Assembly (NCBI GenBank): GCA_964646035.1
Contig: CAZYDJ010000001.1
Location: forward strand, 7,346 to 71,345
From: an uncultured Fibrobacteraceae bacterium
GTDB taxonomy: Bacteria > Krumholzibacteriota > Krumholzibacteriia > LZORAL124-64-63
DNA length: 64,000 nucleotides
Direction of reading: 5' to 3'
Shown in pieces: positions 11,019 through 54,158 of the stretch (positions within the stretch are counted from its first letter, which is position 1; the number at the start of each line of letters is the position of its first letter). The notes beneath the pieces are model-generated. The model was given only the letters and a program-made list of their open reading frames with translations. It had not been told where the DNA came from and did no database searches. Position numbers and translations under genes: made by a program.

Positions 11019-14000
11019 CTATTTCACCACCGCGATCTTGCGGCGGATGTCATAACCCGTGCCGGTGATCCGGCAGATGTAGCCTCCGTTGGCGACAATG
11101 TCGCCGTCGCCGTCGCAGCCGTTCCAGGTGAACTGGTTGGTGACTCCGGCCCGGGCATCGATGCTCATGGTCAGGACCGAGGCACCGTAGAGGTCATAGA
11201 TGATCATCTTGGCCGGCCCGTCGGCGGGCGGATTGAAGAGGATCAACGTCGACTCGTCGCCGGCTCGGAACGGGTTCGGGCGGTTGGTGATGGGCTTGCC
11301 TACTCCCAAAGCCGCCGTCGTGTACAGATTCACCGACTGGACAACCTCGCGGACCCCGCTCACTTCCTCGGCGAAGAAGCGCAGCACGTGCAGTCCGGTG
11401 TCGGCGGGGATCAGTTCGGCGAGAGAGAAGGGACCGCTGTACGCCGTCGTCGGCAGGGTGCCGTCCGAACCGTCGATATCCATGAACACGGCCCTGATCC
11501 CGTCGGGAGCCTCGGTCTGCGGAGTCAGTGTGATCCGCGTGTCGAAGGTGATGTACTTGCCGTCCTCGTAATCGGAGGCCACGCCCTCGTAGCTGATCTC
11601 AGTCGCCGGCGGTCCTGCCACCAGCAGTTCCCGCAGCTCCGGCGCCATGCCCAGGCACGAGACCTGAAGCAAGATGTCTTCGGTGGCGTCGTAATCAGCC
11701 CTCAAAGAGACGACCGCATGACCGTCGGCGCTGGTGACGACCAGAATTTCAGGCTGGCCGGCCGGTCCGACCGTACCGTCGCCCTCGAGAACCTCGAAAT
11801 CGATGTCCAGGCCGGGAATGGCGTTGCCCGCTGCATCGTCGACTTCGGCGATGACCGTCACGACGTCGTTCGGGCGCATGACACCGGAGAACGCTCCGCC
11901 GTCTCCGTCCTGCAGACTGACCACGAAACTGTTCGCAGCCCCGGGCAGGACCGTTATCTGGCTGCTGATCGAAGAGCCGCCCTCGCTATCCTCGACGCGC
12001 AGGTAGATGACCTCGGCGCGGTCGTAGGACTGGTAGGCGAAGGAGGCGATCCCGCCCTCGGTCGAACCCATCTGGTAGGCCAGGGTGCCGGCGGGACTGA
12101 GCGAGATGTCGGGCCGGATATCGCCGGTCCAGGCATGGAATACCGTGACCGTGAACGCAACGTCGGCCGAGGTGACTAATTCACCGGTGTCGCCGTCGAC
12201 GCGGCCGATGGTCATCGGCCAGGTGGCTCCGGCTATGACCGTGTCCGGAACCGAGATATCGTATTCCACGCTGGCCGGGACGACGGTCAGCACGCCGCTA
12301 TAACCCTCACGGCCGTATGCGTCGACTGCACGGATCACGATCTGCTCGCTGATGCCGTATGTCTGGTGGTCGATGACAGCCACTCCCGCGACCAGGCTGC
12401 CGCCGGCGACTCCCAGTTCGGCGGTGGCCGCCGACCAGTTCGGCTTCAGTGCGCTGATGGTGAAGTCGCCGCCGGCCGGTATGGGCGTGCCGTCCTGGGT
12501 GTCGATCAGGCGCAGGCCGAGTTGGAACGTCGAAGGAGGCCCGGTAATCACGATCGCCGGATCCGGCAGATCGATCGCGTACGTCACGTCGCGCACCTGG
12601 ACATCCACCACGCCGCCGATCGCGTCCGGAGCATCGGCATCCGCCGCGTAGATCGAGACCTGTCCGGTTCCAGCGAGAATCACGTCTATGGTGCGGGATC
12701 CGTTGATGAACGCGGCGCCGGCTGCGGCGGGATCGGAGAGCATGAGCCACCCGGCGACCGAGCACGTCACGTCGATCGATCCCGAGTTCAGGGTGGTGAG
12801 CCTGTTGTAGTACTGGTCCACGGCCTGAACCGTGAGCGGGAACGCCACGCCGACATGTTGCGGCAGCGGCTCACCGGTCTTGCCCGCGGTATCGATCGAT
12901 CCGGGAACTGCGGTTTCGCCCGGAGCCAGGACCAGGACCTGCTTGAATCCGTCGGGAAGCATCCGGCAGGTGTTGCTGACTCCGACTACTCCGTCGATGT
13001 CGCTGACCCTGATGAAGATCTCCTCGGCCAGGGTGTAGCTCTGTTCGATCAGGCAGTAGCCGCTGTTGTAGGTCTGCTGGTGGATGCCGTAGTTGCCGGT
13101 CACCGGCATTCCGGTCACCGCGCTGAGGATCTCGATGTCGAGCATGCCGCCTTGCGTGGTGACCCTTTCCCCGGTGTTGGAGTCCATCAGTTCGACTTCG
13201 AGCGGGAATGTCGACGGGCCGCCGACGGTGGCGTTCTCGGGAATCGAGACGGCGTAGTAGAGCCCGCCGGTCTGCATGTCGATGACGTCGCTGACAATCT
13301 GCCGGCCGTAGTCGTCGACCATGCGGACAACCAGGTTCTCGAGAGCGCTGTAGCTCTGGTTGTTGATCACGGCGACGCCGTTGACCAGGGCCCCTGAAGT
13401 CACGCCCAGGCTGCCGGTGCCCGCCGAGAGATCGGCGCGCAGGGGCTCGAGCGTGAAGTGGTTGAAGGCCGACGGCATGGGGAATCCGGTCAGCGGATCC
13501 ATCAGCCTGATGGTCATCGCGAAGCCGGGGATCGGCCCGGTGGAGGCCGCTGCCGGCACGTCGATCTCGTAGTAGTAGGGATCGACCAGGGTAACGGTCG
13601 TGGTCTGGGGGGTCCGCGCGGGATCGTCCAGATCGGACGCCGTGACGCTGACCGGACCGGCCTGGGTCAGGAACGACGAGAACGTCCGGGCCCCGTTGAT
13701 GAAGGACTGGTCGTTGACGTCGGGATTGCCGACGATGGCGAACGAGCCGTCGGAGGCTTCCAGATGTACGGTGCCGACCGCAGTCGTGTCCGCCACGTTC
13801 CAGTACTGGTCGACGGCGTAGACATCGATCGGGAACGGCTCGCCGGGCCTCTGGGAATCCGGATCGCCGTCCTTGCCGGTCAGCGAATAGGCGGGATCTC
13901 CGGGATGGGCCGTCTCGCCGGGGGCCAGAATCTGCAGGTGCTTGTACCCGTCGTGATCGACGCTGAACAGCGGGCTGTAGCCGACCAGGCCGGTATCATC

Positions 14001-29192: not shown

Positions 29193-29462
29193 CTCCTCTG
29201 CCAGAGGGGCGAATCAACTTTGCTTAGGAACAGTGCGTTCACAAGCCCGCGGAGTCAGTGTCAAGTTTGGACTATCGCAGAAGAGCGGAACGCAGTCGTT
29301 GCGCAGGGTTCTCGCGTGAAACCTCTGCATCCTAACTTGGTATCATATCACCTGATTGCAAGCATGTCCACGGATTAGCAAAAAAATCGGCCTAGACCGA
29401 AAAAACCGCCGGTGACGGCCCAAACCCCTTCAGAACGACTCCAAATACCCAAAAGGGGCAAT

Positions 29463-31548: not shown

Positions 31549-31554
31549 AGCCGC

Positions 31555-31635
31555 ATATCCGTTAGGGGTGGTCGCAAGACCTGAGAGATACCCTTGGAAC
31601 CTGAACCGGGTCATTCCGGCGTAGGGAAACGTGAT
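31555..31635 (+). promoter_or_regulatory. TPP (thiamine pyrophosphate) riboswitch, THI element
   Basis: The sequence is cgttaGGGGTGgtcgcaagaCCTGAGAgatACCCttgGAACCTGAaCcGGgTcATtCCgGCGTAGGGAAacg. It matches the conserved THI-box cores (GGGGUG, CUGAGA, ACCC..GAACCUGAUC.GG.UAAU.CC.GCGUAGGGAA). The expression platform contains the hairpin AGGGGCCGG-N9-CCGGCCCCT and an AGGAGG SD before the ATG at 31730. Confidence 0.85.
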
Positions 31636-31729
31636 GAGAACCACGCGACCCACACGTGCCGGCTTCCTGGGAGGGGCCGGTTTTCTGATGCCGGCCCCTG
31701 TAAGACCGTCCTTACAGGAGGCTCTCGTA

Positions 31730-34309
31730 ATGCTGTCCCAGTCCTTTCTCCGGCGAAGCCGCACCGGTGGATTCGTCGCTCCCCTGTTGATCCTGCCGAG
31801 CGCCCTGCTGCTGATCCTGTTGACGAGTTACGCCGCCTTCAGCGCCGAAACCGGGGAAAGCACGGTCCTGCTCGGGCGCGTGGCCGACGCCGCCAGCGGC
31901 GCGCCGCTGGCCAACGCCAACGTTTCGGTCCAGGGCTCGACCGCGGGCACCATGACCACGAACGACGGCTGGTTCTCCCTGCGCGGAGCGCCGGACAGAC
32001 CCTATACCCTGGTCGTCTCCTTCATCGGATACGAAACGTTGCTGCTGGCCGTGGATCCCGCCTCGATCGCGCCGGGCGAGTTCCTGGAGCTGGCTCTCCA
32101 GCCCACCGTCTACGCGACGGAACAGATCGTCGTGACGGCTTCTCGCTACGGATCGGACCTGCACCTCAGCCAGACGAACATCCCCCGCGAGGAACTGCAG
32201 AGAAGAATCGCCGACACCGATATCCCGCTGCTGCTCGAGGACACGCCCGGGCTGTACGCCAGCAGTGATGCGGGCAACGGCATCGGCTACACGTACCTGA
32301 AGATCCGCGGCTTCGACCAGCGGCGCGTCGGCGTGATGGTCAACGGCATCCCCCTGAACGATCCCGAGGACCACCAGGTCTACTGGGTTGATCTGCCCGA
32401 CCTCGCATCCTCGCTCGAGGACGTCCAGGTGCAGCGCGGGGTCACCAACTCCCTGGGCGGGATGACAGCCATCGGCGGAACAGTCAACCTGGTGACCGAC
32501 ATCCTCTCGGTGGAGCCCCGGGCCAGGGCCGCCGCCTACGCCGGAAGCTACGGCACGGCCAAGCAGTCGCTGCTCTACAACACCGGGCTGGTCAACGACC
32601 GGTTCAGTTCGGCGATGCGCATCAGCCATCTCGAGAGCGACGGCTACCGCGACCGGTCGGGCAGCGACCAGTGGGCCGTGTTCTGGAGCGGCCGCTACCA
32701 GACCCCGAACAGCGCCACCCAGATCAACATCTACACCGGACGCGAAAAGACCCTGCACGCCTGGGACGCGATCGACGAGGACACTCTCGAAAACGACCGC
32801 ACATACAATCCCGAAACCTACGCCAACGCCGTCGACGACTTTCGGCAGCCCCATTACGAGCTGCACCACCGCTGGAACGTGGGCGACAACCTCATGCTGA
32901 AGAACTCGGCCTTCGTCATCCACGGCGAGGGATTCTACGAGAACTTCAAGGATGACCGGCAGGCCGGCGATTTCGGTCTCGACCGCTCCGACTTCCTGGG
33001 TCTCGATCCCGAGGCCGAAGTCGATCTGGTGCGGCGCAAGTGGGTCCGCAAGGATCAGGTGGGTTGGGTGCCCCAGCTGATGATGGACCATTCCGGCGGC
33101 CGAACCGTGATCGGAGGCGACGTCTACACCTTCCACAGCAATCATTGGGGAGATGTGATCTCGGTCGAGGGCTTCACCCCCGACGACATGGTCGGAGGGC
33201 TGAAGTACCACGAGTACACCGGCGACAAGGTCGCGTGGTCGGCCTATGTGAACGAACGCTGGGAGGCCCTACCCGGATTCACCCTGATGGCCGACCTGCA
33301 GTTCCAGCATAAGCGCTACGAATTCATGCAGGAACCGGCGGGCAATTTCCAGGGCGATCTGCGCAACGCCTACACCGTCGATTATGACTTCTTCAATCCC
33401 AAGGGCGGCTTCTTCTGGGATCTGCCGCGCGATCTGCTCGGCGGCGACACGGGGCTCTACGGTCACGTCGGACAGACCCATCGCGAACCCGCCGACAGCG
33501 ATCTCTTCGACACCTGGGACGGCCCGGACGACCTGGGCGTCCAGCCGTTGTTCAGCCGTTCCGAGCCGGTGGACGAGAACGGCGACGGCAGCGTCGACTA
33601 CGTGCGGTGGTACGATCCGCAGGTGCGGCAGGAGAAGGTGCTTAACTGGGAAGGCGGATTCAGCTGGCGTACGCGGGCGGTGTCCCTGACCGTCAACGGC
33701 TATTGGATGGATTTCGAGGACGAAATCGTTCCCTACGGCGCAGTGGACGATGACGGCCTCGCCATCCGCGGCAACGCCGACAAGACCCTGCACCGGGGAA
33801 TCGAAATGGGGCTGGCGGCGCAGATCACGCCGGTCCACCGGCTGCGCCTGGCCGCGTCGAAGAGCTGGGACGAGTACGATCGGTTCAGCGTTTTCGAGGA
33901 TGTCTGGGACTGGGATACCGGGGAATACCTGGGAACCACCGAGACGGACTACTCCGGCAATCCCATCCCGCTGTTCCCGGACCACCTGCTGAGCGCGACC
34001 GTGGAATCGGATCTCGGCCCCCTGGACACCAGCGTTCGCCTGCGTCGAGTCGGCAGGCAGCATCTCGACAATACCGGTCGAGACAATCGGGTCATCGACG
34101 CCTACACTACCGTGGATCTGGGCCTGAGCGCCGATCTGGCCGCCCTGGGCGGCGAGTCGCTTTCCGGAGCGTTTTTCGATTTTCGCCTGCGCAACCTGTT
34201 TGATGTGGAGTACGAGACCAACGGATATTACGATCCTTGGGCTGGAGGGAACATGAGGATTCCCGCCGCCAAACGTAATTTCCTGGCTGGGATCAGGGCT
34301 GCTTTCTGA
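31730..34309 (+). CDS. TonB-dependent outer-membrane receptor (CarboxypepD_reg-like N-domain, plug, 22-strand barrel); predicted thiamine/TPP-precursor uptake
   Basis: The start was chosen at the ATG with an AGGAGG RBS (signal peptide MLSQSFLRRSRTGGFVAPLLILPSALLLILLTSYAAFSA). The ORF track begins 33 codons earlier, inside the riboswitch. A TonB-box-like region and plug motifs are present (IVVTASR, GIPLND). It lies directly downstream of the TPP riboswitch. Confidence 0.85.
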   Translation: MLSQSFLRRSRTGGFVAPLLILPSALLLILLTSYAAFSAETGESTVLLGRVADAASGAPLANANVSVQGSTAGTMTTNDGWFSLRGAPDRPYTLVVSFIGYETLLLAVDPASIAPGEFLELALQPTVYATEQIVVTASRYGSDLHLSQTNIPREELQRRIADTDIPLLLEDTPGLYASSDAGNGIGYTYLKIRGFDQRRVGVMVNGIPLNDPEDHQVYWVDLPDLASSLEDVQVQRGVTNSLGGMTAIGGTVNLVTDILSVEPRARAAAYAGSYGTAKQSLLYNTGLVNDRFSSAMRISHLESDGYRDRSGSDQWAVFWSGRYQTPNSATQINIYTGREKTLHAWDAIDEDTLENDRTYNPETYANAVDDFRQPHYELHHRWNVGDNLMLKNSAFVIHGEGFYENFKDDRQAGDFGLDRSDFLGLDPEAEVDLVRRKWVRKDQVGWVPQLMMDHSGGRTVIGGDVYTFHSNHWGDVISVEGFTPDDMVGGLKYHEYTGDKVAWSAYVNERWEALPGFTLMADLQFQHKRYEFMQEPAGNFQGDLRNAYTVDYDFFNPKGGFFWDLPRDLLGGDTGLYGHVGQTHREPADSDLFDTWDGPDDLGVQPLFSRSEPVDENGDGSVDYVRWYDPQVRQEKVLNWEGGFSWRTRAVSLTVNGYWMDFEDEIVPYGAVDDDGLAIRGNADKTLHRGIEMGLAAQITPVHRLRLAASKSWDEYDRFSVFEDVWDWDTGEYLGTTETDYSGNPIPLFPDHLLSATVESDLGPLDTSVRLRRVGRQHLDNTGRDNRVIDAYTTVDLGLSADLAALGGESLSGAFFDFRLRNLFDVEYETNGYYDPWAGGNMRIPAAKRNFLAGIRAAF

Positions 34310-37450: not shown

Positions 37451-37611
37451 TGGACCCCCTTCACTATCCATTCCCCCACAACGCGTCCCTTCCGTCAAGG
37501 CAGGTGTTGCAAGTTGCGGACCCCGTTTTCGTTGCTTTGCGACTATGGCCGGAAACTGTAACCTCTGGCCGAACCCGTCGTCTCAGGATGCGGAGACCCA
37601 AGGAGGGAGCC

Positions 37612-38229
37612 GTGACCGACCAGGACAGCGCCGTCATCCAGTCCGTTCTCGACGGTAACGTCGAGGCCTTCCGCCATCTGGTGGCGAGGCATCAGGGCCG
37701 GTTGTTCACCATCCTGCTGAGGATGGTCGGCGACGAGCAGGAAGCCGAGGACCTGGCCCAGGCGACATTCGTCAAGGCCTACCGATCGCTGGCCTCCTTC
37801 CGCGGCGACTCGTCCTTCGGCACCTGGCTGGTCCAGATCGGGATCCACGCCTGCCGGGATTGTCTGCGCCGCCGGATGCGCGATAAGGAGCGGGGAACAG
37901 TCTCCCTGGATTCGGTGATCGACCGGAGGGGCGATGCCGCGGAGCCGGCCGATCCCGGCACCACCGGCGACGCCAGGCCGGAAATCGAGAGGCGGGAGGA
38001 CGCAGCGCTGCTGCGAGACGCGATGGCGGAACTGCCTCCGGAATACCGGCTGGTGCTGGTGTTGAAGCACCTGGAGGAATGGCCCTTCTCCCGGATCGCC
38101 GAGTTCACCGGCGACAGCGTCGGCACGCTGAAGGTCAGAGCGCATCGGGCCAGACGAATGCTGCGGGAAAAGCTCGTGGCAATTGGTCCTGAAGATGGGA
38201 ATCGGGAAACGGAGAACCATCATGAATGA
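37612..38229 (+). CDS. RNA polymerase sigma-70 factor, ECF subfamily
   Basis: The GTG start has a strong AAGGAGGGAG RBS. Sigma region 2 (FRHLVARHQGRLFTILLRMVGDEQEAEDLAQATFVKAY) and region 4 (LPPEYRLVLVLKHLEEWPFSRIAEFTGDSVGTLKVRAHRAR) are present. Confidence 0.85.
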   Translation: MTDQDSAVIQSVLDGNVEAFRHLVARHQGRLFTILLRMVGDEQEAEDLAQATFVKAYRSLASFRGDSSFGTWLVQIGIHACRDCLRRRMRDKERGTVSLDSVIDRRGDAAEPADPGTTGDARPEIERREDAALLRDAMAELPPEYRLVLVLKHLEEWPFSRIAEFTGDSVGTLKVRAHRARRMLREKLVAIGPEDGNRETENHHE

Positions 38230-38896
38230 CGAAAAACTGATCTCCCGCTACCTGGACGGCGAACTCGGAACCGAAGAGGCGGAACTCCTTTTCGAAAGAA
38301 TCGAGAGCGACCCGTCCCTCGAGCGGAAGCTGCGGTCATTCGAACGGATCCTGGCCGAAGTCGGACGCGAATCCTCCCCCCCGGAAGGATTCACCGACAG
38401 GGTCATGGCCGAAGTGCGCGGCGCCGCCCTGGCCGACAAGAACCGCAGGCTGTCCTGGTCACTCCGAGTGGCCATCGCGGCTTCGATCGCGATCGTATTC
38501 GGCTTGGGCTGGATCAGCGGCCGGTCCGGACCTCCCCGGGACACGGCTTCCGGGATGGATTCGCCGGTCGCCATGCGCCTCTCCGCCCCCGGCGTGACGC
38601 CCGCGGGATTCACCGGCAGCGGCGAAGGCATGCACCTGGTGCGCCTGGTCTATCTGCCCCGCGGCGAGGATGTCCAGCAGGTCGCCGTGGCCGGATCCTT
38701 CAACGGATGGAACCCCGAAAATTCGCCGATGCGGCAGGAAGGCGGGGCCTGGGTGGCCATGATTCCGCTGCCGACCGCAGTGCACGAGTATATGTTCGTG
38801 GTGGATGGAGCCTCGTGGGTCGCCGACCCTCTGGCGGCCCAGCAAAGGAATGATGGATTTGGCAACACGAACTCGGTCATCGATCTCACGCTGTAG
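38222..38896 (+). CDS. anti-sigma factor (N-terminal anti-sigma helix, one TM, periplasmic CBM48/AMPK-glycogen-binding-like domain)
   Basis: It starts MNDEKLISRYLDGELGTEEAELLFERIESDP and overlaps the ECF sigma stop by 8 nt. It has a TM segment AIAASIAIVFGLGWI. The C-terminus VAVAGSFNGWNPENSPMRQEGGAWVAMIPLPTAVHEYMFVVDGASWVADP matches the CBM48/E-set glycogen-binding signature. Confidence 0.7.
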   Translation: MNDEKLISRYLDGELGTEEAELLFERIESDPSLERKLRSFERILAEVGRESSPPEGFTDRVMAEVRGAALADKNRRLSWSLRVAIAASIAIVFGLGWISGRSGPPRDTASGMDSPVAMRLSAPGVTPAGFTGSGEGMHLVRLVYLPRGEDVQQVAVAGSFNGWNPENSPMRQEGGAWVAMIPLPTAVHEYMFVVDGASWVADPLAAQQRNDGFGNTNSVIDLTL

Positions 38897-38930
38897 GACC
38901 AGGCGCCGTTCATTCTGCTACCGTACCTCC

Positions 38931-40157
38931 ATGGGCTCTTTGGCGGTCGCGATTTTGTTCTTGAGCGGCGCCGCTCCTTGTCCGGCCTCCGAGTGGCGGC
39001 CCTGGATTTCGGTAGGCGGCGGGCACGAAAGCGATATCATCCTTACCGGGACGCCCGATCGCGCGGTCGTGGCCGGGGGCTCGTTTTCCGATATCTCGGG
39101 CGGCTTCACGATCGACGAGGAACTCTCCCCCGCCGTGGATTTCACCGGCGGCGCCCGTTCATTCCTGGAAAAATTCTTCAACGCCGACGGCAGGCTGATG
39201 CACGGCGAAAGCATCTGGGCCGAGACCCGATTCGCGGGTCGCGGCGCCTTCCGGATGCGGCTATCCGGAGGCGGCGATTTCTTCAATGATTCGCAGCGGC
39301 CGCAGTCCCGGCGATTGGGCGGCCATCTCGGCGCAGCCGTCGGGGCCGGAGGCGCGGGCTGGCGGCTGGAGACCTTCGGCGGCCTGGAGGGACGACGCTA
39401 TCCGCGGCTGGATTCCAACGATGAATCCGGCGCGACCGGCACCTATACCGAAAACGGCTGGAACGCCGGCGTTTCGGGAATGGCGCGGCCGGTCGCCGCA
39501 ACCTATGTCCGGGCCACCTTCACCCACAGCGATGTGGATGCCCGGGATCCCTGGTACGACTCCGGCGGCAACACCGCTTCCGCCGACGCCTGGTTTCGGG
39601 TTCGCGACGGTTTCTGGCTGAGCTGCCGGGGCCTCTATCAACGACGTGAATTCGACCAGAGACCGGCAGGCGTCGATACCGACGACTACCTGCTGGCCGG
39701 ATGCGGCATCGAGACTTCGCCCGCCGCCGGTCTGCGCCTCTCGCTGCGCTACGCGTTCTCACGCTACGAACCGACCGCCGGCGACGATGTGGACAGCCAC
39801 CGTTTCGCCGCCGCCCTGACCTGGCGGCCCCGGCTCGAAGCTCCCGCTCCCATCGAAAGATTCGAGCCCCTCGTCCGCCCCCGCGCCGGTTCAGCTCATC
39901 TGTTCCGTCTGCACGCTCCGGGAGCCGGGCGCGTGTCGGTGGCCGGATCCTTCAACGGATGGGACGCGGAGGCCGATCCCATGACCCGGACCGCCGGCGG
40001 CTGGTGGGAAACAGCCATTCCGCTGGCCGCCGGATCACATCAATACATCTATGTCGTCGACGGTCAGGCAACGATTCCACCCGAGGCCGAAGCCGTTACC
40101 GATGACGGATTCGGCGGCGAAAACGGCGTCCTGCACGTTCTGCCGGCGGAGCTGTAA
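38931..40157 (+). CDS. secreted/outer-membrane hypothetical protein ending in a second CBM48/AMPK-GBD-like domain
   Basis: It has a signal peptide (MGSLAVAILFLSGAAPCPASEW). The central region has beta-strand-rich alternating hydrophobicity. The C-terminus VSVAGSFNGWDAEADPMTRTAGGWWETAIPLAAGSHQYIYVVDG is homologous to the anti-sigma C-terminal domain. Confidence 0.5.
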   Translation: MGSLAVAILFLSGAAPCPASEWRPWISVGGGHESDIILTGTPDRAVVAGGSFSDISGGFTIDEELSPAVDFTGGARSFLEKFFNADGRLMHGESIWAETRFAGRGAFRMRLSGGGDFFNDSQRPQSRRLGGHLGAAVGAGGAGWRLETFGGLEGRRYPRLDSNDESGATGTYTENGWNAGVSGMARPVAATYVRATFTHSDVDARDPWYDSGGNTASADAWFRVRDGFWLSCRGLYQRREFDQRPAGVDTDDYLLAGCGIETSPAAGLRLSLRYAFSRYEPTAGDDVDSHRFAAALTWRPRLEAPAPIERFEPLVRPRAGSAHLFRLHAPGAGRVSVAGSFNGWDAEADPMTRTAGGWWETAIPLAAGSHQYIYVVDGQATIPPEAEAVTDDGFGGENGVLHVLPAEL

Positions 40158-40245
40158 CCTAAGGTCCCGGCCGGCGTCTCAGGTGATGTTCACGGGAAGA
40201 CTGTCGAGCCCTCGGCTTCCCTACAAAAAACACGGAGGAGTTCCG

Positions 40246-41310
40246 ATGAAAACCATCATCAGCAAGAAGTTCTTCCTGGCCGTAATGCTCGTGGGAATGG
40301 CCGCAATGGCCCTCTCGATCCCCACGGCCGCAATGGCCCAGGACACCCCCGACGATCCCGATCAGACCCGGACCCGTCTGCGTTCACACCTTATGGAATG
40401 CATCGAAGGCGACCAGGCGCTACAGAACCAGGAACGGATTCGGATGCGTGAGAACCTCGAACAGGGGTTGGAATGCGGGTTGAGCGGCGCCGATCTCGAA
40501 ACGCTGTTCGGCGAAGGCGAGCTGACCAAGCTGCAGACCAAGACCAGACTACGTATCCAGGAACGGATCATCCAATCGGCCGCTGAAGATCTTCCGGTGG
40601 AGCCGGTGATGGACAAGCTGCGTGAAGGAGCCATGAAGGGCGCCGGCGACCAGGCTCTCGAAAACGCCTGCGAGCGGATGGAGAATCACGTCCGGACCGC
40701 CAACAAGGTGATGACAGGAATCGCGGCGGACGGCGTCGAAGCTCCCGCCGATCCCGAACAGGCCCGCAAGATCGTGCGCGAAACGGCCCGCAACATGTGG
40801 CGGGGACTGGGCGAAGACAGCCTCGATCAGCTTTGCGAACAGGCGCGCAAAAGGGCGCGCGACCAGAGCTGCACCCAGGAAGATCTGGCTGCGGCCTGCG
40901 AGACTGCGACCCAGTTGCAGGAGCGCGGCGTGAACAGCGAACGGGCCGTGAACATGGCCGGCGAGGCTCTGCGCAACGGATATTCCGTCCAGCAGATGAG
41001 TCAGATCCGGGCCTCGGTGGCTACCCAGGCCATGAGCGGTCGCGATGTCGATGAATTGGCCGGCGAGATGGAACGCTGCATCAACGAAGGCATGGGCGCC
41101 GGCGAAATGATTCAGCACATGGTCCAGTCCGGCTGGATGGGACCCGAAGGCGCGATGGGACCCGGCGGTCATAACCCCATCGACGACATCGGCGGCGGCC
41201 CCGGCGACGGCGGCATCGGTGACGGCGGCTCCGGCGACATGGGCGGCGGCTCCGGCGACGGCTCCGGCGACGGCTCCGGTGACGGCGGCCCCGGCTCCGG
41301 CAATCAGTAG
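40246..41310 (+). CDS. secreted alpha-helical hypothetical protein with a Gly/Asp/Ser-rich low-complexity C-terminal tail
   Basis: An ACGGAGGAG RBS precedes the signal peptide MKTIISKKFFLAVMLVGMAAMALSIPTAAMA. The C-terminus is GDGGIGDGGSGDMGGGSGDGSGDGSGDGGPGSGNQ. Confidence 0.5.
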   Translation: MKTIISKKFFLAVMLVGMAAMALSIPTAAMAQDTPDDPDQTRTRLRSHLMECIEGDQALQNQERIRMRENLEQGLECGLSGADLETLFGEGELTKLQTKTRLRIQERIIQSAAEDLPVEPVMDKLREGAMKGAGDQALENACERMENHVRTANKVMTGIAADGVEAPADPEQARKIVRETARNMWRGLGEDSLDQLCEQARKRARDQSCTQEDLAAACETATQLQERGVNSERAVNMAGEALRNGYSVQQMSQIRASVATQAMSGRDVDELAGEMERCINEGMGAGEMIQHMVQSGWMGPEGAMGPGGHNPIDDIGGGPGDGGIGDGGSGDMGGGSGDGSGDGSGDGGPGSGNQ

Positions 41311-41341: not shown

Positions 41342-41369
41342 ACGGCCCTCCCGATATCGGGAGGGCCGT
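41342..41369. terminator. bidirectional intrinsic terminator (perfect 14-bp palindromic hairpin ACGGCCCTCCCGAT/ATCGGGAGGGCCGT flanked by A-run and T-run)
   Basis: It lies between the convergent genes 40246..41310(+) and mscS(-). The inverted repeat was read directly. Confidence 0.65.
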
Positions 41370-41399: not shown

Positions 41400-42215
41400 C
41401 TAATCCACGGAGGGCTGATGGACCATGATCTGCGGGAACGGGATCTCGACGCCCTCGCGGTCGAACGCCTCCTTGACCGCCCGGGTGAATTCGAACTTCA
41501 GGGCCCAGTAATCGGCCTTGTTCACCCAGGGACGCACAACGAGATTCACGCTCGAGTCGGCCAGCTCGCTGACGGCTATCTGCGGGGCCGGATCCTTCAG
41601 CACGCGCTGATCCGAATCCAGCAACTCCTGCATGATCCTCACCGCGCTCCCGATATCCGAGCCGTATCCGATTCCGATCACCATATCGACCCGGCGGGTA
41701 TCCTCGGCGGTGATGTTCTTGATGGTGTCGCCGAAGATCTTCCCGTTGGGCACCATCACCCTGATGTTGTCCGGGGTCATCATGACGGTCGTGAAGAGGT
41801 TCAGCTCGCGCACCGTGCCGGCGGCTCCTCCCGCCTCGATGAAATCACCGACCCGGAAAGGCCGGAACAGCAGCAGCATCACGCCGGCCGCGAAGTTGGA
41901 CAGGGAGCCCTGGAGAGCGAATCCGACCGCGAAACCCGCGGCGCCGAGAACCGCCACCAGCGACGCCGTCTCCACCCCGAAGTTGCCCAAAGCCGACATG
42001 ATGGCGAAGATCAGGATCAGCCAGTAGGCCAGACTGGCGACGAAGCTGATGATCGCCTGATCCGTGTCCCTTTTGCCCAGCACCCTGCGCACCATGCTCC
42101 GGGCCCATCCGGCGACCATGCGGCCGATGATCAGTACGACAATCGCCCCGACCACCTTGATGCCGTATCCGGTCGCGAAATCTATCAGCGCCTGCATCAG
42201 ATTATCCAATGTCAT
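41400..42215 (-). CDS. mscS: small-conductance mechanosensitive channel
   Basis: A 271-aa ORF with three TM helices and the MscS beta-domain motifs (GTVRELNLFTTVMMTPDNIRVMVPNGKIF). Confidence 0.88.
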   Translation of the reverse strand: MTLDNLMQALIDFATGYGIKVVGAIVVLIIGRMVAGWARSMVRRVLGKRDTDQAIISFVASLAYWLILIFAIMSALGNFGVETASLVAVLGAAGFAVGFALQGSLSNFAAGVMLLLFRPFRVGDFIEAGGAAGTVRELNLFTTVMMTPDNIRVMVPNGKIFGDTIKNITAEDTRRVDMVIGIGYGSDIGSAVRIMQELLDSDQRVLKDPAPQIAVSELADSSVNLVVRPWVNKADYWALKFEFTRAVKEAFDREGVEIPFPQIMVHQPSVD

Positions 42216-42221
42216 CCTCCC

Positions 42222-43082
42222 CTAGAACAGCTTGTAGGTAACTCCCAGGCCCAGCGCTTGGCGATAGCGGCCTTGGCGCGTGATTTCCTCGTCGTATAGG
42301 AATTCCACGAAAAGAGTGGTCTGGATGTATTTCGAGATGGACGCCGAAAGGGTGGTTTCCCAGGCGACATCCGTACTCTGCCAGTAATCCTCGTTGACCA
42401 GTCCCTCCAGCTCGTCCGAGACGGAGCTGAAGAAGGCCTGGAAGACCCTGAGCTTGGATTCCACTTTCAGGTCCCCGTCCGCGCCGAAAGTGCGACTGAA
42501 ATCAGTCACCCATTCGAGTCCGCCGGAGGTCCTGCCCTTGACCCGATACGCCAGGTCCTGGCGCAGGGCGAAGCCGATGCGGGTGAACAACTCGCCCAGG
42601 TCGTCCTTCATTATCTGATGGCCGGCGCCCAGCGATTCGGTGATCGTGGCGGGAGTCAGCGGGTTGTTATCGCCGTCGTGGAACTGGCTGTCGAAAGTCA
42701 GCGCGGCGTACGGCTCGACGAACTTCTTCATGTCGAAGCGCAGCAACGATTCGAGGAAGATGCGGTCGGTGGATTTGACGGGTCCGGCCCAGTACTTGTC
42801 GCCGGCGGCGTCTATCTTTTCCTGGTGGGTCTGGCCGTAGGAAAGCTTGATCTCGTTCTTCCAGCCGATGGTCGCGGAAATGTTTTTCTCGGCGGTGATG
42901 TTGGTGATGGCCGTCCAGTTCATCGTTCCCAGTTCATCCCCCGCCCAGGAGTCGCTATAACTGCTCTGGTTGAAGTTCAGCCCCATGTCGGCGGACTTCT
43001 TCCACTCTGCGGCCCCGGCCACGCCGACGACAGTCAGAGACAACATCAAAACCATCAGGAACGCCTTGATACCAAGTCGCAT
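42222..43082 (-). CDS. DUF3078-like outer-membrane beta-barrel hypothetical protein
   Basis: It has a signal peptide (MRLGIKAFLMVLMLSLTVVGVAGA), alternating beta-strand pattern and a terminal aromatic residue (YKLF), typical of OM barrels. Confidence 0.5.
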   Translation of the reverse strand: MRLGIKAFLMVLMLSLTVVGVAGAAEWKKSADMGLNFNQSSYSDSWAGDELGTMNWTAITNITAEKNISATIGWKNEIKLSYGQTHQEKIDAAGDKYWAGPVKSTDRIFLESLLRFDMKKFVEPYAALTFDSQFHDGDNNPLTPATITESLGAGHQIMKDDLGELFTRIGFALRQDLAYRVKGRTSGGLEWVTDFSRTFGADGDLKVESKLRVFQAFFSSVSDELEGLVNEDYWQSTDVAWETTLSASISKYIQTTLFVEFLYDEEITRQGRYRQALGLGVTYKLF

Positions 43083-43318
43083 TTTCTTCCCTTTCTTCCG
43101 CAGTACTATCCCCATCGATTTGGGATCAGGAATGCGAAACGATAATGATCGATGGAAATTCAGGACGAGGTTCGGCGCCGCATATAGCGGATGAACACCC
43201 GGTTCGCCTAACCCATGGCGAACGGTGACATCCTATATGCTCTGCTGTTCGACGGCAAGAGCAGGTGATCGGGGCAGCGGGGAGGAGGCCGATCAACGCC
43301 AGCCCCCTCCCGGCGGAT

Positions 43319-52264: not shown

Positions 52265-53260
52265 CTACTCTTTATCCGAAACGGCCTGAGCGGACGATTC
52301 ATCGACCGGATCGAGCCACCATTGCTGCCAAGCCAAGGCAAAATCCTTCCTCATCCCATCGAAGCAGGTCGAGGCCAGAACGAAGTCTCCGTTACCGATG
52401 GCGCTGACCAGGGCGCCGCCGTCGCGCTCCAGATCGTCCCGCGCCGGCCGCGACCTTTCCCTGCGGGCCGAGATATCCGCCTCGGCCGTGGCCGCGGTCT
52501 CGGATATCCCGTTGTATAGGCTGATGCAGGCGGCCTGGCCGAGAATGAATGCGTGCCCCGGCAGGGTCTGCTCCAGCCTGACGCCACCGCCGAACAGGGC
52601 CGTCGGTCCGGCCTGGATCGCGGCCAAGGCCTTCGGCGGAGCGTTCTTCAAGGGCGAAATCGGAGTGCCGCAGAGCAGCACGATCATCAGGGTGCCGACA
52701 TAGGCCGCCTCGAAACTGAAGCGGGGCCTGGCCATCTGACGCCTGAGCCACTCGCCGGCTCTATCCACCCAGACGGTCAGGCGGTCCATCGCGACCGTCA
52801 CGGGCGGAGCTTCCGGAGCCGACGGAATCGTCGCCGCCATGACGCCCAGGGTGAAGTCCTCGCCGGGATCCAGGTCGCCGAGTTGGATCAGAATCGGGGC
52901 CGCCCAGGCCAACGCGTCGGCCAAGGCATCGCAATCGGGGCAATGCTCCAGATGCGCTTTCAGCAGGGACTGATCGGTCTGCGCCAGGGTCCCGTCCACC
53001 ATGCCCGGCAGCAGCTGATGGGCCCGGCCGCAGGCGGATCCGGACGTGCGGGCCAGGATCGCCGCGGTCTGATCCGGGACTTCGGCTGAACCGGCATCGA
53101 TCCGGCTGCCCAGAGCCGTCGCGAAGAGTTCGCTGCAGTCGGCGCAGGTATCGAGATGGGACTCGACCAGCTGCCGGCGCTTCTGGTCCAGGGTCCCGGC
53201 CAGCATCGCATCCAACAAGACCTCGCAGTCCCGGCAATCCAATTTCTGGTTCCGGTTCAT
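52265..53260 (-). CDS. anti-sigma factor with two zf-HC2 zinc-finger motifs and a TM segment
   Basis: It has CRDCEVLLDAM...HLDTCADC and a second HLEHCPDCDAL. Its start overlaps the stop of the ECF sigma gene (ATGA). Confidence 0.6.
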   Translation of the reverse strand: MNRNQKLDCRDCEVLLDAMLAGTLDQKRRQLVESHLDTCADCSELFATALGSRIDAGSAEVPDQTAAILARTSGSACGRAHQLLPGMVDGTLAQTDQSLLKAHLEHCPDCDALADALAWAAPILIQLGDLDPGEDFTLGVMAATIPSAPEAPPVTVAMDRLTVWVDRAGEWLRRQMARPRFSFEAAYVGTLMIVLLCGTPISPLKNAPPKALAAIQAGPTALFGGGVRLEQTLPGHAFILGQAACISLYNGISETAATAEADISARRERSRPARDDLERDGGALVSAIGNGDFVLASTCFDGMRKDFALAWQQWWLDPVDESSAQAVSDKE

Positions 53261-53829
53261 ATCGTGGCCTCCATCCTCGATCCGCCGCCGAGATCGATAA
53301 CCGCCCGGGCCAACTCGATCCGCGCCCGGCTGGAACGCGATTTGGCCGTACCCAAGGGGATCTCGAGCATCTCGGATATATCTTCCAGCGCCATTCCCTG
53401 CATGTCCTTCAACATGATGATCTCTCGATTTATCGAACTGAGGGATTGCAGCGCCTTGTGCACGAGCATCCGTTTCGACTCCGATTCCATGATCTGATCC
53501 GGCCGCGGGGAACTGTCCGTCAGGCCGATCGCCTCTTCGGCCGGGATGTCCCTGGCCGGGGGCCGCGCCTTGCGCCGACGCAGATGGTCGAGGCAGGCGT
53601 TGCGGGAGAGGCGGATCAACCAGGCCAGGAAACGATCATCATCGCGGCAGCTCTCAAGGCGCTTGTAGACGCGGACGAATATGTCCTGGGAGATGTCCCG
53701 GGCCTCGTCCGGATCGCCGACATAGGTCATGGCGATCCCGAAGACCCGGCCCTGGTGCTGTCTGACCAGGGCCTCCCAGGCCAGCTCGTCGCCTTTCCTG
53801 CAGCGTTTGAGCAATGTGGCCGTTTCCAT
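53257..53829 (-). CDS. RNA polymerase sigma-70 factor, ECF subfamily
   Basis: The start METATLLKRCRKGDELAWEALVRQHQGRVFGIAMTYVGDPDEARDISQDIFVRVYKRL has a GGAAGGA RBS. Region 4 is LKDMQGMALEDISEMLEIPLGTAKSRSSRAR. The 72-codon upstream ORF extension is rejected. Confidence 0.8.
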   Translation of the reverse strand: METATLLKRCRKGDELAWEALVRQHQGRVFGIAMTYVGDPDEARDISQDIFVRVYKRLESCRDDDRFLAWLIRLSRNACLDHLRRRKARPPARDIPAEEAIGLTDSSPRPDQIMESESKRMLVHKALQSLSSINREIIMLKDMQGMALEDISEMLEIPLGTAKSRSSRARIELARAVIDLGGGSRMEATI

Positions 53830-54158
53830 CGGATTCCTTCCGATCTGCCGGTTAATCCGTCGTCGCCTACCGCGGCGGCGGTCTTGGTCTGCCCCAAAGA
53901 GACGCAGCGGACCCGCCCCGGGTTCGCCGCCGGGAAAGATTTTTTTCTGATTCCAGACTAGCATCCCCCCGATCGGCCTGGAAGCGAAGTCCCGGGCAAC
54001 CTCTCCGGCGCGGACGGCGTAGATGACAAACGGGGGCTTTTTCATCTGATCAGCAATTTCATGATAGGATCGGCTGGGGTATCCCCCGCACCGTCAGCGA
54101 TTCTGAGCGGATCGCCAGCGTTGACGATCCGCCACCGATCGAAGCGAGGAGGGGGACG

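Follow-up and report, generated by a model that had tools for sequence, protein, structure and literature searches.

A genuine four-gene envelope-signalling operon with a CBM48-bearing anti-sigma factor, kept across many bacterial phyla

Pairs of extracytoplasmic function (ECF) sigma factors and anti-sigma factors are a major form of bacterial signalling, and the inputs of most of them are unknown. Here we describe one such pair, encoded in a 64,000-nucleotide stretch of DNA from an uncultured Fibrobacteraceae bacterium (contig CAZYDJ010000001.1; the whole 64-kb stretch is called the window below), in which the anti-sigma factor ends in a predicted periplasmic domain of the CBM48/AMPK-beta type. 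The pair belongs to a genuine four-gene envelope-signalling operon that is kept across many bacterial phyla. Its four co-directional genes occupy positions 37612-41310 of the forward strand, and all of them are present in the list of open reading frames (ORFs) of the window at the following coordinates, given with the domains and sites assigned to them:

37557-37585 (+): P1, predicted ECF-type promoter before the sigma gene, TGTAACCT-N14-CGTCTCA, with -35 GTAAC, a 16-nt spacer and -10 CGTC
37612-38229 (+): ECF (group 4) sigma factor of 205 aa, whose GTG start codon follows the ribosome-binding site (RBS) AAGGAGG by 7 nt
38222-38896 (+): single-pass anti-sigma factor, 224 aa (ORF), its start overlapping the sigma stop by 8 nt
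38222-38431 (+): putative cytoplasmic anti-sigma domain, aa 1-70, matching RsiW and without His/Cys zinc ligands
38456-38518 (+): transmembrane helix of the anti-sigma factor, aa 79-99, WSLRVAIAASIAIVFGLGWIS, read from the translation
38630-38893 (+): periplasmic CBM48/AMPK-beta-type domain of the anti-sigma factor, aa 137-224, from Pfam and PDB profile matches
38931-40157 (+): gene 3, predicted barrel protein with a C-terminal CBM48 domain, 408 aa (ORF and AlphaFold2 model)
38991-39824 (+): gene 3 beta-barrel of 14 strands, aa 21-298 (AlphaFold2 model)
39894-40142 (+): CBM48 domain of gene 3, aa 322-404 (Pfam), with the W133 equivalent lost (DGQATIPPEA)
40153-40181 (+): P2, second predicted ECF-type promoter, in the spacer between genes 3 and 4 and overlapping the gene 3 stop codon
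40246-41310 (+): gene 4, 354 aa, ATG start 6 nt after GGAGGA (ORF and RBS)
40357-41154 (+): gene 4 core, aa 38-303, an all-alpha helical repeat with the conserved motif PVEPVxxKxxEGxxKG
41158-41307 (+): gene 4 C-terminal tail, aa 305-354, rich in Gly/Asp/Ser and disordered, predicted local distance difference test score (pLDDT) about 53 or lower
41342-41369 (no strand assigned): strong hairpin, 12-bp stem with 10 G-C pairs (terminator scan)

Genes called independently on a metagenome contig of 96% identity (locus L001) gave matching products of 205, 224, 408 and 351 aa. A first-pass annotation of the same DNA, made from the letters and their ORFs, had proposed an ECF sigma factor, a CBM48 anti-sigma factor, a second CBM48 envelope protein and a secreted helical protein; the domain matches and structural models agree with this layout, and the two peptides quoted there occur verbatim in the translations. 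Absent from it are the gene 3 barrel, the role of gene 4 as an invariant partner with its own promoter copy, and the wide occurrence of the module. Co-transcription, which it had also claimed, is supported by the 8-nt overlap of the sigma and anti-sigma genes, the 34 nt between the anti-sigma stop and the gene 3 start, a search of this gap for promoter motifs and terminator-like sites that found neither, and the single strong hairpin after gene 4. The hairpin, which sits between gene 4 and a convergent MscS-type gene, is predicted from the sequence to end the operon.

The co-occurrence of this architecture in other genomes was surveyed on several levels. A word-indexed search yielded 433 homologues of the CBM48-bearing anti-sigma factor, most of them with the same architecture. 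Full-length matches in species-representative genomes came from Nitrospira, Balneolota (Fodinibius, Rhodohalobacter), Salinivenus, Atribacterota and Acidobacteriota, and further ones from Gemmatimonadota and Longimicrobiales, Anaeromyxobacteraceae, Candidatus Thiodiazotropha and Eisenbacteria; the homologue groups comprise Nitrospirota, Balneolota, Rhodothermota, Atribacterota, Acidobacteriota, Gemmatimonadota, Myxococcota, Gammaproteobacteria and Eisenbacteria. ORFs were then called in 80 loci and searched with the proteins of the window. An ECF sigma gene lies directly upstream of the CBM48 anti-sigma gene in 42 loci from about ten phyla. A gene 4 homologue follows downstream in 40 of these, the exceptions being a truncated contig (L007) and a locus in which gene 4 precedes the sigma gene (L037); a second CBM48 protein follows in 28 of the 42, and both are found downstream in 27. 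Very distant relatives of gene 4, at about 25% identity, still sit in the same type of cassette. These counts define a core of sigma factor, CBM48 anti-sigma factor and gene 4, with a membrane-anchored second CBM48 protein as a frequent fourth part. The CBM48 module is also encountered outside the cassette: in Bacteroidota, eight loci (L048, L058, L064, L065 and L072-L075) carry genes for proteins of about 485 aa, each with four CBM48-like domains in tandem, and have no sigma gene beside them, a different and apparently widespread use of the module.

The sigma factor matches Sigma70_r2 (68 bits) and Sigma70_r4_2 (49.6 bits) in Pfam, with no other domains in its 205 aa, and scores 103.8 bits against the ECF superfamily model TIGR02937 (cutoff 42.9). 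None of the named NCBIfam equivalog cutoffs is reached, the best match being PRK11922 at 130.7 bits against 204. Several features mark it as an ECF protein: a length of about 200 aa with sigma-2 and sigma-4 domains only; an anti-sigma gene directly downstream, overlapping by 8 nt and encoding an RsiW-like N-terminus, an adjacency repeated in the 42 loci; and a putative autoregulatory promoter, predicted from sequence, with AAC in its -35 and CGT in its -10 element. The GTG at 37612 is favoured as the start codon over an upstream ATG at 37588 on account of the placement of P1 and the RBS. A second ECF-type sigma gene, related to the first at a phmmer E-value of 2.6e-21, lies elsewhere in the window at about 53260-54093 (-).

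The cytoplasmic part of the anti-sigma factor was examined with a profile of 32 homologues, which matched the sigma-binding domain of Bacillus subtilis RsiW (5wuq_C) over aa 5-73 (E 8e-6). The NCBIfam anti-sigma model NF052375 gave an E-value of 2.6e-10 at 40.7 bits, below its cutoff of 100, and zf-HC2 scored 16.7 bits at the N-terminus, below its threshold of 22.2; the ZAS zinc motif HxxxCxxC is absent, as aa 1-70 contain no His or Cys. From its resemblance to RsiW, this domain would bind and inhibit the sigma factor. The transmembrane segment keeps its hydrophobic character throughout the 32 aligned homologues, and the Lys/Arg residues before it place the N-terminus inside and the C-terminus outside. 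Between the helix and the CBM48 domain runs a short, variable linker of about 35 aa, in which neither RsgI_N nor any other Pfam domain was detected.

Upstream of the sigma gene, about 30 nt before its GTG start, P1 conforms to the pattern CTGTAACCT-N14-CGTCTCAGG, and P2 is identical to it at 18 of 18 specified positions. The two are the only exact matches in the window, where 0.41 would be expected for a loose version of the pattern. A third site at 29317, considered as a regulon promoter, carries three mismatches and is consistent with chance. Likewise discarded was GGAAAC, 6 nt upstream, as the -35 element: its 19-nt spacing is unfit, and comparison across phyla gives GTAAC-N16-CGTC. The form GT(A/T/G)AC-N15-17-CGTC is met again upstream of the sigma orthologues of other phyla (GTTTAC-N16-CGTCTAA in Nitrospira), with 21 of the 42 loci carrying the motif against 1.9 expected; upstream of gene 4, 12 copies were observed across loci against 3.2 expected, and loci with such a second copy include L001, L018, L023, L025, L030, L038 and L068, several of them from Gemmatimonadota and Anaeromyxobacteraceae. 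The predicted motif is of the classical ECF type, similar to that of SigW. P1 is predicted to drive the whole operon and P2 to drive gene 4 in addition, both being putative promoters of the sigma factor's own type, and the circuit arising from this arrangement is apparently one of positive autoregulation with an extra drive on gene 4.

Further copies of the motif were seen in two lineages. In Nitrospira, a copy (TTACC...CCGTCTA) lies about 3-4.6 kb upstream of the sigma gene (L010 777-5100, with equivalents in L002, L003, L004 and L009) and precedes genes for a small lipoprotein, a DUF5666 protein, a Gly/Arg/Asp-repeat protein and a Phenol_MetA_deg-type outer-membrane protein (gene list from L086); this envelope-protein cluster may contain further members of the regulon. 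In Balneolota, extra copies occur just 3′ of the gene 4 homologue (L033 8965-9852, L020 6798 and 9264, L045 9080). The copy in L033 precedes a DUF4382 lipoprotein gene, and L087 has a like layout (gene at 11057-11872), which suggests a lineage-specific extension of the predicted regulon.

The identity of the sensor domain was examined with hidden Markov models (HMMs). Residues 151-222 of the anti-sigma factor score 45.3 bits with AMPK1_CBM (threshold 26.8) and 25.9 bits with CBM_48 (threshold 22.4), and aa 323-403 of gene 3 score 42.1 bits with CBM_48 and 40.6 bits with AMPK1_CBM, so that both domains, named CBM48 in the first-pass annotation, lie above the Pfam thresholds. The homology asserted there between the two domains is borne out, at 43% identity and an E-value of 9e-17, a likeness far beyond chance, while the length given for it, about 50 aa, is replaced by one of 86 aa. 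The nearest solved structure for the sensor domain is an N-terminal domain of TK-PUL, a pullulanase from Thermococcus (5ot1_A residues 84-175, E 1.7e-13), with which it has the motif DP...DG(F/Y)GxxNAV in common, and the carbohydrate-binding modules of AMPK beta1 and beta2 follow at E-values of about 1e-8 in the PDB profile search.

The residues at the sugar platform were compared by aligning 40 sensor and 27 partner CBM48 domains with AMPK beta1. Positions are numbered as in rat and human beta1 (W100, K126, W133, L146, N150), a numbering with which the HMMER alignment to beta2 is consistent; in beta1 the sugar-binding platform is formed by both tryptophans together with the asparagine, and K126 is a sugar-contacting lysine. 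The W100 equivalent is Trp in 40/40 sensor and 27/27 partner domains, and the G147 equivalent is Gly throughout both sets. At the W133 position, Trp is found in all 40 sensor domains and in 24 of 27 partners, with Thr in gene 3 of the window and in L001; the N150 equivalent is Asn in 40/40 and 21/27, respectively. The L146 position holds Phe or Tyr in every sensor domain and Phe (19), Trp (7) or Met (1) in the partners. The K126 equivalent is Met in 33 of the 40 sensor domains and variable in the partners. As judged from this alignment, the invariant aromatic platform argues for a conserved ligand-binding surface; the identity of the ligand is not told by it.

Taken together, the reading that we prefer, at a probability of roughly 0.45, is a periplasmic glycan-sensing ECF switch with release of the sigma factor in the manner of RsiW or RseA, in which gene 4 would serve as main output and probably also as feedback modulator. 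A periplasmic or envelope-associated glycan, or a glycan-like polymer, would bind to or leave the CBM48 domain of the anti-sigma factor. The change in ligand occupancy would expose the anti-sigma factor to regulated proteolysis, as for RsiW and RseA, and free the sigma factor, which would amplify its own operon and strongly induce gene 4. The gene 4 protein would then work in the periplasm as main output, as feedback modulator of the sensor, or as both, and the outer-membrane CBM48 domain might compete for the same ligand or present it. The ligand would more likely be an endogenous component of the envelope than dietary starch.

Several points weigh against this reading. Glycan binding by the sensor is a prediction only, and its exposed aromatics could equally form a protein-protein interface. 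Its K126 position is mostly Met, as noted above, and the gene 3 domain of the window has Thr in place of the second tryptophan. We know of no periplasmic alpha-glucan in these phyla, and the cassette is present in chemolithoautotrophic Nitrospira; among the examined loci, genes of glycogen or starch metabolism adjoin it in L083 only (GH15, GlgC). The regulated-proteolysis step, finally, is drawn by analogy, with no site-1 protease identified.

The gene neighbourhoods bear on a version of glycan sensing in which glycogen or starch, named in the first-pass annotation among the possible glycans, is the external signal: fragments of alpha-glucan would pass the gene 3 barrel, bind the sensor CBM48 and switch on genes of glucan utilisation. 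In support, alpha-glucans are the usual ligands of the CBM48 family, the sensor retains the platform residues, the barrel has its best fold matches among oligosaccharide channels, and the L083 cassette adjoins GH15 and GlgC genes. Against this stand the position of the sensor behind an outer membrane, the frequency of the cassette in Nitrospira, where the partner is a lipoprotein rather than a channel (about 130 aa, lipobox GFWAC), the promoter targets found in the window, which are the cassette's own genes only, and the lack of consistent amylase, Sus or Mal neighbours in the examined loci. A phmmer sweep of 88 locus sequences found no consistent association of glycan or metal genes with the cassettes, and both neighbourhood leads were dropped. 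We therefore regard external starch or glycogen as a very improbable signal.

Sporadic neighbours of the metal type were nevertheless recorded. A CzcCBA-type RND pump with HMBD is encoded immediately upstream of the cassette and co-directional with it in L085 (595-7261), as is a P1B-type ATPase in L083 (305-2461). Together with the His-rich tails of many gene 4 proteins, these hint that some lineages couple the module to metal stress, an association that is not general.

The gene 3 protein models as an outer-membrane barrel. Its AlphaFold2 model, built with 20 homologues (pLDDT 83.4), consists of 14 antiparallel strands, a low-confidence linker and a CBM48 sandwich; with a signal peptide and an even-numbered antiparallel barrel, it has the expected attributes of an outer-membrane protein, into which membrane its insertion is predicted. 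PF13505 (OMP_b-brl) was matched by three homologues. In the PDB, Foldseek ranks two porins of 14 strands highest, OmpG (2iwv, E 4e-9, TM-score 0.61) and CymA, at only 11-12% identity, a match that reflects strand number and thereby also tells against a starch channel. The N-terminal domain was undetected by phmmer and jackhmmer outside close relatives, so that its equivalence to the long partners of other phyla is one of architecture only. Since even-stranded outer-membrane barrels have both termini in the periplasm, the gene 3 CBM48 should face that compartment, the same as the sensor.

This geometry invites a different explanation, in which the CBM48 domains act as protein-protein modules of a trans-envelope relay. 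The outer-membrane domain would contact, or fail to contact, that of the anti-sigma factor, and the pair would report the assembly of outer-membrane proteins or lipoproteins, or envelope spacing, in the manner of FecA-FecR or RcsF-IgaA, and gene 4 would be induced to act in the periplasm as an effector or modulator. In its favour, the two domains are tethered to opposite membranes and face one compartment, the partner is always membrane-targeted though its anchor type differs between phyla, and no consistent context of glycan metabolism was found. The relationship of the two domain classes cuts both ways. Mean identity is 47% among sensor domains and 35% among partners, the nearest neighbour of each partner domain is another partner domain, and cognate sensor-partner pairs are no closer (32.5%) than non-cognate ones (32.2%); the two classes are thus ancient paralogues rather than recent duplicates. 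Ancient co-inheritance suits a relay, whereas the weaker conservation of the partner and the lack of closer similarity within cognate pairs do not. The partner CBM48 is moreover missing from 14 of the 42 cassettes, and gene 4 from hardly any of the 42; the invariant positions of the sensor coincide exactly with the canonical sugar platform. On balance we consider a relay doubtful, but the strongest of the alternatives to a glycan-sensing switch.

The fourth protein, which the first-pass annotation had described as helical and secreted with a (GDGSG)n tail, carries a Sec signal peptide (aa 1-31, AMA|Q), as do nearly all of its homologues at their N-termini. Its model is all-helical, with an overall pLDDT of 85.7 and values above 90 over most of the core, and ends in the disordered tail, which is present in 37/37 aligned homologues and Gly/His-rich in many. 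The helical repeat is structural only: internal sequence repeats were sought and rejected, hhalign of four segments giving at most 23% probability and self-BLAST being empty. Neither Pfam nor NCBIfam contains a match, Pfam scans of 37 members gave nothing meaningful, and profile searches of PDB sequences yielded no meaningful relative, nor any fold relative. With E-value limits of 1e-30, 1e-10 and 1e-3, a profile search of 1.84 billion cluster representatives recovered 231, 631 and 1533 members, respectively, the last tier possibly containing glycine-rich false positives. By these searches, gene 4 founds a new protein family without a Pfam model, with at least 231 to 631 clusters.

With gene 4 downstream in 40 of 42 cassettes, upstream in L037 and present even in very divergent ones, it is the invariant partner of the system, and a third explanation makes this protein, or its tail, the true ligand or co-sensor. 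Gene 4 would protect or expose the CBM48 domain of the anti-sigma factor, as RseB does with RseA or CpxP with CpxA; a stimulus such as envelope damage, metal or redox would act on gene 4, and the CBM48 fold would be a mere docking platform. Its own sigma-type promoter has the form of a feedback architecture, conserved charged motifs and cysteines occur in the family besides the His-rich tails of many homologues, and metal-efflux genes adjoin two cassettes. The sporadic nature of that neighbourhood speaks against it, however, as does the absence from the Pfam and PDB searches of any likeness to the CpxP, Spy, ZraP, RseB or CnrX families, and the contact between gene 4 and the sensor is proposed by analogy only. 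We hold this explanation to be unlikely, somewhat more so than a relay.

A glycan-sensing switch could also be seen on a larger scale, as a widespread, hitherto unrecognised envelope-surveillance device in which two CBM48 domains of ancient pairing, one held at the inner membrane by the anti-sigma factor and the other at the outer membrane, read an endogenous glycan (peptidoglycan strands or a periplasmic glucan) or membrane spacing, with the gene 4 family as main output and feedback element. Such a generalisation is speculative and on the whole improbable; were it true, the "glycogen-binding" CBM48 fold would gain a signalling role in the bacterial periplasm.

Among known systems, the closest functional analogue is SigI/RsgI of Clostridium thermocellum, in which anti-sigma factors with extracellular carbohydrate-binding modules (CBMs) signal by proteolysis (PMC10328401, PMC4711584, PMC6852018). 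Both have an anti-sigma factor that sits in the membrane, with an extracytoplasmic carbohydrate-binding module as its sensor, and sigma and anti-sigma genes in an autoregulated operon, which is predicted for the cassette; activation by intramembrane proteolysis would be shared only by analogy. The cassette is not a member of that family, however. Its sigma factor is of the ECF type, with sigma-2 and sigma-4 domains only, and not SigI; Pfam detects no RsgI_N or juxtamembrane autoproteolytic domain in the anti-sigma factor; the module is CBM48 instead of CBM3, CBM42 or PA14; the sensor is enclosed by an outer membrane, in the periplasm of a Gram-negative cell; and the additional conserved partners, the outer-membrane CBM48 and the helical protein, are missing from RsgI systems.

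With SigW/RsiW and RpoE/RseA/RseB the cassette shares an ECF sigma factor, an autoregulated promoter of the AAC-N16-CGT type, predicted in its case, and a single-pass anti-sigma factor, whose N-terminus resembles RsiW by profile match; its operon also contains the gene for an accessory periplasmic protein, as in the case of RseB. It differs in that its periplasmic domain is a CBM48 and not an RsiW or RseA ectodomain, in the absence of the zinc-binding HxxxCxxC from its anti-sigma factor, and in the lack of similarity between gene 4 and RseB. The CBM of AMPK beta and the CBM48 N-domains of GH13 enzymes belong to the same fold family by profile, with the W100, W133, G147 and N150 equivalents kept, but the cassette domain is a stand-alone signalling ectodomain rather than an appendage of a kinase scaffold or glycosidase, and differs in its periplasmic location and in the Met at the K126 position. 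An outer-membrane barrel with a periplasmic domain, encoded beside an ECF sigma/anti-sigma pair, recalls FecA/FecR/FecI, and the order of barrel and C-terminal periplasmic domain in gene 3 recalls OmpA. No FecR, STN, plug or OmpA_C match was obtained from Pfam for the cassette proteins, though; the modelled barrel has 14 strands and no plug, rather than 22 or 8 strands; and the barrel/CBM48 partner is dispensable in a third of cassettes. The cassette is not FecIR-type.

A search of the available literature collection for links of anti-sigma factors with CBM48, AMPK1_CBM or "glycogen recognition site" found no report, papers that name both an anti-sigma factor and CBM48 being judged unrelated, and the main texts of two ECF classification papers do not mention such an anti-sigma domain; the sigma factor may already bear an ECF group number. 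Among the names given to these anti-sigma factors in public records are "glycoside hydrolase family 13" and "isoamylase early set domain-containing protein", both misleading, and the present work corrects them for several anti-sigma factors of this type. The result is a compact four-part module defined for about ten phyla, with Nitrospira, Gemmatimonadota, Balneolota and uncultured lineages of the FCB group among its carriers. It combines a sensor from a fold family of well-understood ligand chemistry with a predicted promoter motif, a minimal regulon and a new partner family, which makes the question of its input directly testable.

Two further gene groups of the window were noted. On the far side of the hairpin, the MscS-type mechanosensitive channel gene (41400-42215 (-)) and a gene for a DUF3078/DUF481-like predicted outer-membrane protein (42222-43115 (-)) converge on it; both neighbours are also found in L001 and not in distant loci. 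Before the cassette, a thiamine pyrophosphate (TPP) riboswitch (Rfam RF00059, 67.5 bits against a gathering score of 54.3) at 31554-31644 (+) is found immediately upstream of the gene for a TonB-dependent receptor (31631-34309), which is followed by genes for thiamine pyrophosphokinase and a sodium:solute symporter, and the group looks like a thiamine-salvage and uptake operon.

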